Below are positions 58,967 through 60,364 of a stretch of DNA of 64,000 bases, one piece after another. The DNA is taken from IMG/VR virus record IMGVR_UViG_2718218131_000002. One strand, given 5' to 3'. Each line of letters opens with the position of its first letter. Within the stretch, counting starts at the first letter, position 1. Origin of the DNA: a virus. Lineage: Duplodnaviria > Heunggongvirae > Uroviricota > Caudoviricetes. The position numbers and the translations under genes are program-made. The notes below the pieces were generated by a model. The model was not told where the DNA came from. It was given only the letters and a program-made list of their open reading frames with translations, and did no database searches.

Positions 58967-60013
58967 ATGAGTATGGTTGACTTATATTCGCCTACACAGC
59001 TTGTGCAGGTGGCTAATGCTGAAGATGTGCAAAAAAAATTAAATGCGTTGTTTACCAGTTTGTTTTTCACTCGCTCGGTAATGTTTGAATCGAGAGACAT
59101 TATTCTTGATACGATCGACGATCCAAATATCCCGATCGCGGCGTTTTGCTCTCCTATGGTGGGCAGTAAAGTTTCACGAGATGAGGGATACGAATCAAAA
59201 ACAATTCGCCCTGGCTATATGAAACCGAAAAGCAGCATTGATCCAAATAAGTTAGCTGTGCGCCCTGCTGGTGTATCACCTGAGCAATACAATGCTTTTG
59301 GAGCGCGTAATATTAAAGTTAAACAGGCGATTGTAAATCAGGCTAAAGCTATTCGTGCACGTATTGAATGGCTTGCCGTTCAGGCAATCACAACGGGGAA
59401 AAATATCATTGAGGGCGATGGCATTGAACGTTATGAACTGGACTGGAATATAAAACCACAAAATATTATCACGCAGTCCGGCGGTGCTGAGTGGTCAGGT
59501 AAGGATAAAGAAACTTTTGATCCAAATGATGATATTGAGAGCTACGCAGAATTTAGTGAGGGCGTCACTAATATCATCATTATGGGCGGTAATGTATGGA
59601 AGAAATACCGTTCATTCAGAGCGATAAAAGAGGCTCTGGATACCCGTCGTGGTTCTAATTCCGAACTGGAAACGGCCCTTAAAGACCTTGGTGATTCGGT
59701 GAGTTTTAAAGGGTATATGGGCGATGTTGCGATTGTTGTATACAGCGGGCGTTATACCGACGAGGACGGAACTGAAAAACATTTCCTTGATCCTGATTTG
59801 ATGGTGCTTGGCAATACGGCTCTTCAGGGGATTGTCGCCTATGGCGGTATTCAGGATCCGGAGCTAATCCGAATGGGGCTGACTAAAGCCGAACTTGCAC
59901 CGAAAAACTATATTGTGCCTGGTGATCCGGCTATTGAATATGTGCAGACACATTCAGCACCACAGCCAATACCGGCCCGCATCAATCGTTTTGTTACCGT
60001 TCGCATTGGCTAA
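58967..60013 (+). CDS. major capsid protein, lambda gpE homologue (satellite-encoded)
   Basis: Blocks shared with the prophage E in this window: ITQSGGAEWSGKDKETFDPNDDIESY vs ITQSGGTEWSKRDKSTYDPTDDIEAY; LDTRRGSNSELETALKDLG...YMGDVAIVVYSGRY. Confidence 0.8.
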   Translation: MSMVDLYSPTQLVQVANAEDVQKKLNALFTSLFFTRSVMFESRDIILDTIDDPNIPIAAFCSPMVGSKVSRDEGYESKTIRPGYMKPKSSIDPNKLAVRPAGVSPEQYNAFGARNIKVKQAIVNQAKAIRARIEWLAVQAITTGKNIIEGDGIERYELDWNIKPQNIITQSGGAEWSGKDKETFDPNDDIESYAEFSEGVTNIIIMGGNVWKKYRSFRAIKEALDTRRGSNSELETALKDLGDSVSFKGYMGDVAIVVYSGRYTDEDGTEKHFLDPDLMVLGNTALQGIVAYGGIQDPELIRMGLTKAELAPKNYIVPGDPAIEYVQTHSAPQPIPARINRFVTVRIG

Positions 60014-60022
60014 GGGGGAGCA

Positions 60023-60364
60023 ATGGCTACTCATTACACTGAACTCATGGCTGGCACTGAAGCACTGGTGACTACGCTGGGGATATTTTCAGCTAATAAA
60101 GGGGTAATTCCTGCATTTACGCCACTGATGCAGGAAGATGCAACAGGTGCACTGGTGGTATGGGATGGTTCGAGCGTAGGTAAAGCGGTTTATGTTTCCG
60201 CTGTACAAATCGACACCGCGAAAAAAACACAGGCTCAGGTCTATAAGACAGGTGTCTTAAATGTTGATGCTCTGAACTGGCCTGAGTCTGTAAAAGAACT
60301 GTCAGTAAAGATTGCAGCGTTTGTTGGCTCAGGTATTTCTGTTCAGCCGCTGGCTCGTGTGTAA
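60023..60364 (+). CDS. head decoration protein, lambda gpD homologue (satellite-encoded)
   Basis: 113 aa; TPLM...LVVWDGS..GKAV block parallels gpD TPLM...LVAWDGT..GAAV. Confidence 0.6.
   Translation: MATHYTELMAGTEALVTTLGIFSANKGVIPAFTPLMQEDATGALVVWDGSSVGKAVYVSAVQIDTAKKTQAQVYKTGVLNVDALNWPESVKELSVKIAAFVGSGISVQPLARV

Follow-up and report, generated by a model that had tools for sequence, protein, structure and literature searches.

The window, a stretch of 64,000 nucleotides, contains an island of 10,491 bp that occupies a chromosomal site of E. coli, the roxA-phoQ interval, ~5 kb from the end of a lambdoid prophage. The island is bounded by direct repeat D1, with the attL core CGGTGTAGTTAATGGTGTAGTTAATT at the left end (51943–51968) and its identical 26-nt tail, the attR core, 10,491 bp further on at the right end (62434–62459). 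Between them lie the genes for an integrase, AlpA, a primase with the origin, a single-strand DNA-binding protein, the capsid and decoration proteins (E and D) and a second AlpA-like protein, followed by a cos site and the gene for a Nu1-like small terminase (TerS); all features given here are on the + strand, the origin alone having no strand assigned. The tyrosine integrase (51990–53219; Pfam Arm-DNA-bind_3 and Phage_integrase) is followed by the AlpA regulator (53594–53782; Pfam Phage_AlpA, 5e-18) and by a D5-type primase/replicase (55985–57802; Pfam D5_N, DUF5906 and Pox_D5; "DNA primase family protein" in PGAP). [quoted passage not shown] The single-strand DNA-binding protein (58332–58754) matches Pfam SSB (4e-16), while the right end carries a conserved 93-aa protein (61515–61796; phrog_1561) that is 77% identical to the product of the last EcCICFT073 gene. 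The left-end integrase, the att repeats, the dedicated site, alpA followed by a unidirectional primase/replicase and origin, and a size within ~10–20 kb with lysis, tail and full head modules absent are those of a Gram-negative PICI.

The E-like gene (58973–60013) encodes a 346 aa gpE-like major capsid protein of a satellite clade, which matches Pfam Phage_cap_E (3.8e-41) and scores 141.7 bits against PF03864 (cut-off 22.9), covering profile positions 4–327 of 329. The initial annotation had started this gene at 58967, which is indeed an in-frame ATG but lies two codons 5' of the likelier ATG at 58973, itself six bases 3' of the Shine-Dalgarno sequence AAGAGG. The protein is 41% identical to E of the neighbouring prophage and 55% identical to c1499 of EcCICFT073 (crystal structure, PDB 3BQW). 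The comparison with lambda gpE by alignment and structure prediction, as proposed in the initial annotation, yielded an AF2 model (pLDDT 79, pTM 0.81) in which a full-length HK97 fold is predicted, with N-arm, E-loop, spine helix, A-domain and P-domain, and which superimposes on 3BQW with a TM-score of 0.90, on lambda gpE (7SJ5) with 0.87 and on the lambda procapsid (7VI9) with 0.85. A frameshifted pseudogene is ruled out by the intact open reading frames (that of E reaches its stop at 60013), by the full-length alignment to 3BQW and lambda gpE and by a dN/dS of ~0.1. After a gap of 9 nt, the D-like gene (60023–60364) encodes a 113 aa gpD-like head decoration protein, also of satellite clade (Pfam HDPD, 4.4e-15; PF02924, 56.3 bits, cut-off 29.1), whose closest solved relative is the phage 21 SHP (1TD0, 6e-16), lambda gpD being matched at 1e-11. 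It is 40% identical to the prophage D and 54% identical to c1500 of EcCICFT073, and its sequence is clade-specific at both termini.

An intergenic control region precedes E (58772–58932, consensus scan) and comprises a hairpin with an 11-bp stem (58772–58801), TTGCAY direct repeats (58886–58901) and a weak sigma-70-like site (58905–58932). The position of the repeats is kept in islands of E. coli, Cedecea and Serratia, yet the TTGCAY motif on its own has no significance within the window and none is found 5' of alpA, so that we treat the repeats as a lead only towards a pre-E regulator site.

The packaging signals lie 3' of the pair. In the cos site (60784–60872, from sequence reading and alignment), cosQ and cosN (GGGCGGCGACCT, 60816–60827) are identical to those of the window prophage and match those of EcCICFT073, while cosB, downstream of cosN, is specific to the island in the alignment. 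The Nu1-like TerS (60961–61503, 180 aa; Pfam Phage_Nu1, 7e-23; phrog_57, 8.7e-50) is 35% identical to the prophage Nu1, chiefly in the C-terminal two thirds. With its own cos and TerS the island is predicted to hijack helper packaging, as PICIs do.

Among head genes, only those for the shell and decoration proteins are present, as the initial annotation had proposed. Portal, protease and scaffold genes were not found in the island by Pfam and PHROGs searches of all its open reading frames or by a six-frame search, in which every match of phmmer and hmmsearch with lambda C/Nu3, helper gpC C-termini and c1501 had an E-value above 0.7; a hidden gene of any of these three kinds is thereby ruled out. 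The E-then-D order, opposite to that of lambda (D then E), was likewise borne out by the coordinates, and so was the divergence from the prophage copies (D 25598–25930 and E 25986–27011, together 25598–27011). Those had been called helper copies; lambda-type E and D genes are there, E being 99% identical to lambda gpE, but the prophage is visibly degraded, with an IS21 element that splits the gpFI gene and further IS insertions, and therefore may not be the working helper.

Satellite E and D form a clade of their own. None of 50,697 phage records exceeds 42% identity to E or 40% to D, while satellite homologues range continuously from 50% to 99% identity across Escherichia, Salmonella, Serratia, Cedecea, Edwardsiella, Lelliottia and Scandinavium, and the distribution of identities is bimodal. 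The pair can thus not have been captured recently, be it from the adjacent prophage or from any sequenced phage, and the clade is old. Both genes are under purifying selection, with a dN/dS of 0.07–0.10 at dS ~1 for E and of 0.12 for D, and each of the ten divergent E and D genes in the comparison is intact. The E-then-D order is fixed in 10 of 10 diverse islands and in 79 of 79 IMG/VR loci. Of 5,426 complete E. coli genomes, 395 carry the window allele and 592 that of CFT073. Because adjacent genes are co-inherited whatever their function, we do not take E/D co-phylogeny as evidence of interaction. The IMG/VR survey, which covers near-identical alleles and informs on integration context rather than on architecture diversity, returned 80 loci with an E 99–100% identical to the window E, of which 43 are inserted in a helper E gene and 14 in the portal gene. 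The directly readable helpers (those of L006, L016, L017 and 57 IMG/VR loci) all have a lambda-type head module with B, C, D, E and FI. Altogether, the E-D pair is almost certainly the conserved late-module core of an EcCICFT073-family Gram-negative PICI.

The departure of satellite E from phage E is unevenly distributed. Identity to lambda E is 59% in the A-domain and 22–32% in the N-arm (26%), E-loop, spine helix and P-hairpin, whereas phage-phage pairs of equal A-domain divergence mostly retain 38–79% in these elements, with one P-hairpin below that range at 32%; within each clade the four elements are conserved. The N terminus of gpD pairs with the E-loop and N-arm of gpE (PMC5701804). The A-domain identity to lambda, 59% for the window E against 44% for c1499, had raised the idea of a lineage-specific gene conversion by a lambda-type E. 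We rejected it, since the identity is raised in all satellite E (52–66%) and is therefore a property of the family.

What follows D varies between sibling islands. The late module reads E-D-full gpC in Lelliottia, E-D-Nu3-like in CFT073 and L012, and E-D only in the window island. The Nu3-like gene, c1501 in EcCICFT073, encodes a mini-scaffold, a CpmB-like short scaffold homologue, and is found directly 3' of D in siblings. In the window island the slot of the Nu3-like or gpC-like gene is filled by the second AlpA-like gene (60376–60759; a 127-aa HTH protein; Pfam Phage_AlpA, 1.3e-8; phrog_2790, 2.4e-48), which has the same position in L004, L011, L015, L016 and L017.

The initial annotation considered this arrangement unusual, a premise that does not hold: a satellite E-D pair without other head genes is already documented for the EcCICFT073 family. 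The capsid gene c1499 and the decoration gene c1500 of EcCICFT073, the same pair at the same site, were described in 2018 by Fillol-Salom et al. (PMC6092414), 21 of the 29 reference Gram-negative PICIs are reported to carry a capsid gene (PMC10111431), and with Ccm of SaPIbov5 there is an older example of a satellite that has a capsid homologue on its own (PMC6893505). In EcCICFT073, deletion of c1499 or c1500 left both transfer by the resident helper and interference with lambda unchanged, and the DNA packaged with lambda was phage-sized (PMC6092414). When the genes beyond the origin were expressed singly, lambda was inhibited by c1503 (RppA) only (PMC6739421), and deletion of rppA restored lambda almost fully (PMC6092414; PMC6739421). 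The lack of an effect of the deletions, the phage-sized DNA and the exclusive action of c1503 speak against a shell role. However, the islands of the published negative tests, and probably also the one in the size test, had their marker in c1499 or c1501, so that these tests do not decide on capsid function. We found no later functional assignment of a PICI capsid or decoration gene in the literature searched. A pair that is common, old and strongly conserved has been noted since 2018 without an assigned role, and what the present analysis adds is its status as a clade of its own, the purifying selection and fixed order, the map of divergence, the scaffold genes of sibling islands and the caveat on the markers.

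With moderate confidence, we propose that E and D are an assembly-competent shell and cement pair that acts in helper-nucleated heads. During helper induction, the E-like protein would enter procapsids as an HK97-fold shell subunit, alone or mixed with helper gpE, these procapsids being nucleated and scaffolded by the helper portal gpB and the helper protease/scaffold gpC/Nu3. The D-like protein would then serve as its own trimeric cement, a cognate partner being needed because the N-arm and E-loop of E, which form the gpD docking sheet, have diverged from those of the helper. The helper TerL would load the DNA, guided to the island cos by the Nu1-like TerS, and a full-size lambda head would hold four island copies (42 kb). 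In siblings, the gene next to D encodes a Nu3-like mini-scaffold or else a complete gpC, which speaks for a role of the module in assembly, while the combination of an island without its own scaffold and an N-arm only 26% identical to that of lambda makes recognition by helper Nu3 uncertain. We infer both the incorporation of E and D into particles and the specificity of D for E. The idea put forward initially, that E co-assembles with or replaces helper gpE to alter head size or stability, is consistent with the predicted fold, with the selection on both genes and with the pattern of divergence across the domains. For the satellite, the candidate, and unproven, benefits lie in size, supply or stability, or in not depending on helper E. 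We consider it doubtful, though worth keeping in sight, that the pair is a reduced, satellite-owned module, extended in siblings by the mini-scaffold or gpC, that builds satellite-specific shells on helper portals, perhaps of altered size or stability, and that the published null result, with neither a phenotype nor small capsids, is an artefact of islands in which the marker had replaced c1499 or interrupted c1501. If E and D do enter particles, satellites would make part of their own head, which would change the view of the spectrum from PICIs to cf-PICIs and be of relevance for PICI-based delivery vehicles.

Other functions could account for the conservation of the pair. Redirection of capsid size, in which E mixed with or replacing gpE alters curvature and small heads exclude the helper genome, would have a precedent in SaPIbov5 Ccm (PMC6893505) and a suspected counterpart in PmCI172 (PMC6092414), and the concentration of divergence in inter-capsomer and scaffold contact elements, the CpmB-like short scaffold homologue c1501 of siblings and the probable marking of the islands in the published size test all lend it some weight. 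We nevertheless regard it as unlikely, considering that lambda with EcCICFT073 packaged phage-sized DNA only (PMC6092414), and that the six-frame search of the window island returned no scaffold-like gene. The genome size does not call for remodelling either: four island copies suit a normal lambda head, whereas a T=4 lambda-type head, estimated at ~17 kb from the size ratios of P2/P4 and 80alpha/SaPI1, would be filled to ~63% by one copy (10.5 kb) and to ~125% by two. A decoy function, in which one or both proteins sequester the scaffold, portal or gpD of the helper, or poison its shells, and so cut helper yield, might be expected of satellites, among which helper interference is common, and the conserved A-domain could permit mixed capsomers; yet the single-expression and deletion data for EcCICFT073, where inhibition of lambda was traced to c1503, interference persisted without c1499 or c1500 and lambda recovered almost fully without rppA, make this reading very unlikely.

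The distribution of the islands bears on two further explanations. The module may have evolved as insurance in satellites that reside inside the helper E or portal gene, supplying shell protein while that gene is interrupted, and would be a passenger in a chromosomal island; such an idea has been raised for 11capE (PMC10111431) and would suit the insertions in the 80 IMG/VR loci (43 in E, 14 in the portal gene), as well as those of L016 and L017. It is rendered improbable by the restoration of the helper gene on excision, by a constraint on E and D that is equally strong in portal-embedded and in chromosomal islands (window, CFT073, Serratia, Lelliottia) and by a clade far older than any one integration habit. 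The series of reduction from E-D-gpC in Lelliottia through E-D-Nu3-like in CFT073 and L012 to E-D in the window island, together with the lack of a deletion phenotype in the sibling EcCICFT073, could also point to the decaying remnant of a fuller head module, functionless by now. With a dN/dS of ~0.1 at saturated synonymous change, every copy intact and two alleles in 395 and 592 of the 5,426 genomes, we find this most improbable. Our preferred reading remains that of a shell protein and its cement at work in heads that the helper nucleates.

Compared with known systems, the island is closest to the model satellite EcCICFT073, with which it shares the roxA-phoQ site, a 94%-identical integrase, the gene order with E then D after the replication module, and the lack of portal, large terminase and tail genes. 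They differ in that identity is only 55% for E and 54% for D, and in that EcCICFT073 carries 3' of D the Nu3-like c1501 and the TerS-hijacker RppA, whereas the island has the AlpA-like gene, cos and a full Nu1-like TerS. The late module E-D-AlpA-like-TerS-p93 is instead that of the helper-embedded PICIs of the 11capE type (Hudson et al. 2023, PMC10111431), whose E is 99–100% identical in the 80 IMG/VR loci, 57 of them embedded in helper E or B, as are L016 and L017 in their helpers. Unlike these, the island occupies the roxA-phoQ interval and does not interrupt a late gene of a helper in the same orientation, and its integrase is 45% identical to that of L016, the sole one compared. Like SaPIbov5 Ccm, the island E is an HK97-fold homologue of a helper capsid protein (41% identity to the lambda-type E of the window), encoded by a satellite without portal or protease that uses helper cos packaging; Ccm, however, belongs to an unrelated sequence family, has no partner decoration protein and has been shown to enter and shrink capsids, while entry into capsids is a proposal for the island E. 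Capsid-forming PICIs (EcCIEDL933; Alqurainy et al., bioRxiv 10.1101/2022.09.08.507074) share the int/alpA/rep backbone and a capsid protein of their own. They encode portal, protease, connectors, HNH, TerS and TerL, whereas the island has E, D and TerS only, the Pfam, PHROGs and six-frame searches having returned no portal, protease, head-tail connectors or large terminase. In P4, Sid is an external scaffold and Psu a decoration protein; like E and D, these are satellite-owned capsid-surface proteins for shells of helper parts, but the families are unrelated, and P4 is not known to have a homologue of a capsid protein. Should the pair prove to be a satellite-owned shell module, the island would be intermediate in kind, since everything is borrowed by classical PICIs and only the tails are by cf-PICIs.

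The window is E. coli chromosome and carries a satellite island of 10,491 bp, bounded by a 26-nt direct repeat (51943-51968 and 62434-62459), with potBA, pepT and roxA upstream and phoQ as its downstream neighbour. The island sequence is identical in E. coli SLK172 and seven other complete genomes, and an E-D query finds four further matching places in the SLK172 record. Every island gene of known type lies on the + strand. The series opens with an integrase, AlpA, small ORFs (one Icd-like), DUF4222 and a D5-type primase, directly followed by iterons (57805-57993); next are an 81-aa protein, SSB, the gpE-like major capsid protein (E), the gpD-like decoration protein (D) and a second AlpA-like HTH protein, and then come cos, a Nu1-like TerS gene and a gene for a 93-aa protein. 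A duplication of ~130 bp in the early region (54350-54482 and 55098-55231, 748 bp apart, 91-94% identity) covers the place where the Icd-like gene region begins.

The E-like gene (58973-60013, + strand) is no pseudogene, its ORF matching the full Pfam Phage_cap_E profile (3.8e-41), and the distance to the ribosome-binding site is better for a start at 58973 than for the 58967 of the initial annotation. The D-like gene follows at 60023-60364 (+ strand; Pfam HDPD, 4.4e-15). The initial annotation, which described such a pair in a satellite devoid of portal, protease and scaffold genes, is correct: Pfam and PHROGs revealed none of the three in the island, and a six-frame search of it with lambda C/Nu3, three helper gpC C-termini, c1501 (the gene after D in the related island EcCICFT073) and a derived profile gave nothing below E=0.7. 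As had been proposed, we aligned E with lambda gpE and predicted its structure. The AlphaFold2 model (pLDDT 79, pTM 0.81) superposes on PDB 3BQW (TM 0.90), the lambda gpE monomer 7SJ5 (0.87) and the lambda procapsid subunit 7VI9 (0.85), and thus predicts a complete HK97 fold in which N-arm, E-loop, spine helix, A-domain and P-domain are all present. TTGCAY-type direct repeats with ~10-bp spacing (58886-58932) lie 40-90 bp 5' of the E start; their position, after a conserved hairpin, is kept in aligned islands of E. coli, Cedecea and Serratia, and they may be a regulator site for a late E-D operon. The motif by itself has no significance within the window.

A lambdoid prophage at ~5-47 kb of the window carries the lambda-type head genes Nu1, A, W, B, C, D and E, the last of which encodes a protein with 99% identity to lambda gpE. 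Since its gpFI gene is interrupted by an IS21-family element (27395-29702) and two further insertions are present, an IS3 between the lysis genes and Nu1 (18511-19724) and an ISApl1 of the IS30 family within the tail-fibre gene (43694-44668), this prophage is probably defective in its present state and no competent helper. The type III secretion effector genes espK and espO (45052-46749, - strand) occupy its right end, just before potB, and its late-regulatory region contains three tRNA genes (Ile, Arg, Arg; 12115-12364, RefSeq annotation).

The divergence from the prophage copies noted initially was confirmed, at 41% identity for E and 40% for D. Among 50,697 phage records searched, no E exceeds ~42% identity to island E and no D exceeds ~40%; in bacterial genomes, E homologues form a continuous series from 50 to 99%. 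The identities are bimodal: in one group they are at least 50% against the island and 40-47% against lambda, in the other at most 43% and 48-100%, respectively. All first-group genes whose context was read lie in PICI-like islands, from Serratia, Edwardsiella (inside a portal gene), Lelliottia, Salmonella (inside the tail-gene region of a prophage whose tail genes are P2-like), Cedecea and E. coli. Bimodality and context together show that the satellite lineage of E and D is old and separate and no recent capture. The reversal relative to lambda also holds, E preceding D in 10/10 diverse islands and 79/79 IMG/VR loci, while D precedes E in each phage or helper read.

Divergence of island E from lambda gpE lies mainly outside the A-domain, which retains 59% identity, as against 26% in the N-arm, 32% in the E-loop, 22% in the spine helix, 26% in the P-hairpin and 37% in the C-terminal P-domain. 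In phage-phage pairs of equal A-domain divergence (52-58%) the N-terminal elements mostly stay at 38-79%, the lowest single value being 32% (P-hairpin, one pair). All satellite E proteins share this regional pattern, and the N-terminal elements are conserved within both clades (satellite P-hairpin, 74-84%). Because the N-terminal identities fall below those of comparable phage pairs, the alignments indicate that the elements contacting other capsomers, scaffold and decoration protein have shifted disproportionately, unlike the capsomer core. In lambda, the N-terminus of gpD pairs into one sheet with the E-loop of gpE and the N-arm of a neighbour (PMC5701804). Two traits absent from phage D unite the satellite D proteins, an N-terminus specific to their clade and a VQPL tail at the C-terminus; a cognate D beside a diverged E would be sensible if E enters shells that expand and need cement.

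The initial annotation took the pair to be unusual, on the premise that satellites carry a full head module or none. This premise is wrong, because the E-D arrangement has already been described for EcCICFT073, whose c1499 and c1500 were annotated as putative capsid and head decoration proteins (Fillol-Salom et al. 2018, PMC6092414); among the late genes of Gram-negative PICIs, that for a capsid protein is the most frequent (21/29 references; Hudson et al. 2023, PMC10111431). A crystal structure of c1499 has existed since 2008 (PDB 3BQW). The same puzzle is remarked on in the Dokland review (PMC6893505), and in the later papers searched we found no functional assignment for PICI capsid or decoration genes.

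The slot after D varies. In EcCICFT073 it holds c1501 (137 aa, L003:15084-15497, annotated 'hypothetical'), which shows 37% identity (E=2e-10) to residues 416-493 of the 501-residue gpC of the CFT073 helper, a stretch comprising C-terminal repeats and tail, and matches the C terminus of the head-maturation-protease family phrog_53 (positions 495-567 of 583, 1e-8). The family to which c1501 itself belongs, phrog_1999, has a further match in the full gpC-like protein in this slot of the Lelliottia PICI (L008:11409-12752), at residues 310-418, a region overlapping 'capsid assembly' and 'head scaffolding' profiles. By these matches c1501 is a predicted Nu3-like mini-scaffold; the EcCICFT073-related literature searched does not mention it as a scaffold homologue. 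A sibling island has a c1501 homologue in the same slot (L012:10411-10836), and the window island has its AlpA-like gene there, so the family takes three forms, E-D-gpC (the exact reverse of lambda C-D-E), E-D-Nu3-like and E-D-AlpA-like, the window island being the most reduced.

Other relatives carry single helper-late-gene homologues, a lambda gpI-like tail assembly protein in the Serratia PICI (L004:12122-12748; phrog_32, 6.6e-67) and a head completion protein in the Lelliottia PICI (L008:5117-5518; Phage_HCP, 2.5e-17). Likely defence cargo lies at the right ends of the Cedecea island (TIR-domain protein, L017:11106-12254) and an E. coli island (Abi_C protein, L015:12180-12941), unlike in the window island, which has none. 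A metagenome scaffold (L013, P0044) ordered portal-gpC-D-hybrid E-satellite D-AlpA-like contains a hybrid capsid gene (2801-4180), with bases 1-623 of lambda type (~99%) and, from 624 onward, island-type E and island D (98%). The junction falls where the most conserved block begins, and there the two E genes of the window are only 72% identical (longest exact match, 14 nt); the hybrid could reflect genuine recombination between helper and satellite or a chimera made in assembly. Single-ORF capsid-decoration fusions in short read-assembled contigs (P0005, 463 aa; P0077/L014, 470 aa), one in E-D and the other in D-E order, are probably read-through or assembly errors.

That E and D form a PICI late module is close to certain. 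We favour the reading in which they would act as a working shell-and-cement pair in heads nucleated by the helper portal and scaffold, with packaging steered by the island TerS and cos through the helper TerL; as a whole, this mechanism has about an even chance. Four island copies amount to 41.96 kb, or 86.5% of the lambda genome, which is within lambda packaging limits. Full-size heads therefore suffice, and size redirection of the Ccm type is not needed; we hold that reading to be unlikely. The authors of the EcCICFT073 study likened c1499 to SaPIbov5 Ccm (PMC6092414). The capsid-remodelling hypothesis raised initially stays a live minority reading and no discovery. An alternative as unlikely as size redirection is that the pair is insurance for a helper-embedded lifestyle: in 80 IMG/VR loci with E 99-100% identical to island E, 43 islands lie within helper E and 14 within the helper portal gene, none of the 80 having further head genes inside the island, and two more examples (L016 and the Cedecea island) have the same arrangement.

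An interference decoy is improbable, since deletion of c1499 or c1500 left lambda interference, as well as transfer by the resident helper, unchanged (PMC6092414), and in the 2019 follow-up, among post-ori genes cloned singly only c1503 (RppA) blocks lambda (PMC6739421). Least probable of all is a relic without function, against which stand dN/dS values of 0.07-0.10 for E (dS ~1 to 1.9) and 0.12 for D, and the prevalence of the pair: of 5,426 complete E. coli genomes, 395 have the window allele and 592 that of CFT073. With lambda, EcCICFT073 also packaged phage-sized DNA (PMC6092414). The marked derivatives carried either c1501::tetA or cat in place of c1499, and it was the one with cat that went into the lambda and phi80 lysogens (Table 1 and text, PMC6092414). 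We infer that the negative size and phenotype results came from an already disrupted capsid module; they are therefore compatible with a structural role. What is new about the pair is its clade structure, island context, E-D order, selection, prevalence and domain-wise divergence.

EcCICFT073, the model Gram-negative PICI, shares with the window island the roxA-phoQ site, the gene order and the type of integrase (94% identity; last gene, 77%), while E has only 55% identity to c1499 and D only 54% to c1500. Beyond D the two islands carry unrelated genes, c1501 and RppA in EcCICFT073 as opposed to the AlpA-like regulator, cos and Nu1-like TerS here. cosQ and cosN (GGGCGGCGACCT, 60816-60827) are identical in the window island, the window prophage and CFT073; cosB is island-specific, and the island TerS is 35% identical to prophage Nu1, chiefly in the C-terminal two thirds. 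As integrase and site match CFT073 while the late module (E, D, AlpA-like, cos, TerS) is of the helper-embedded PICI type, the window island is a modular mosaic of the two.
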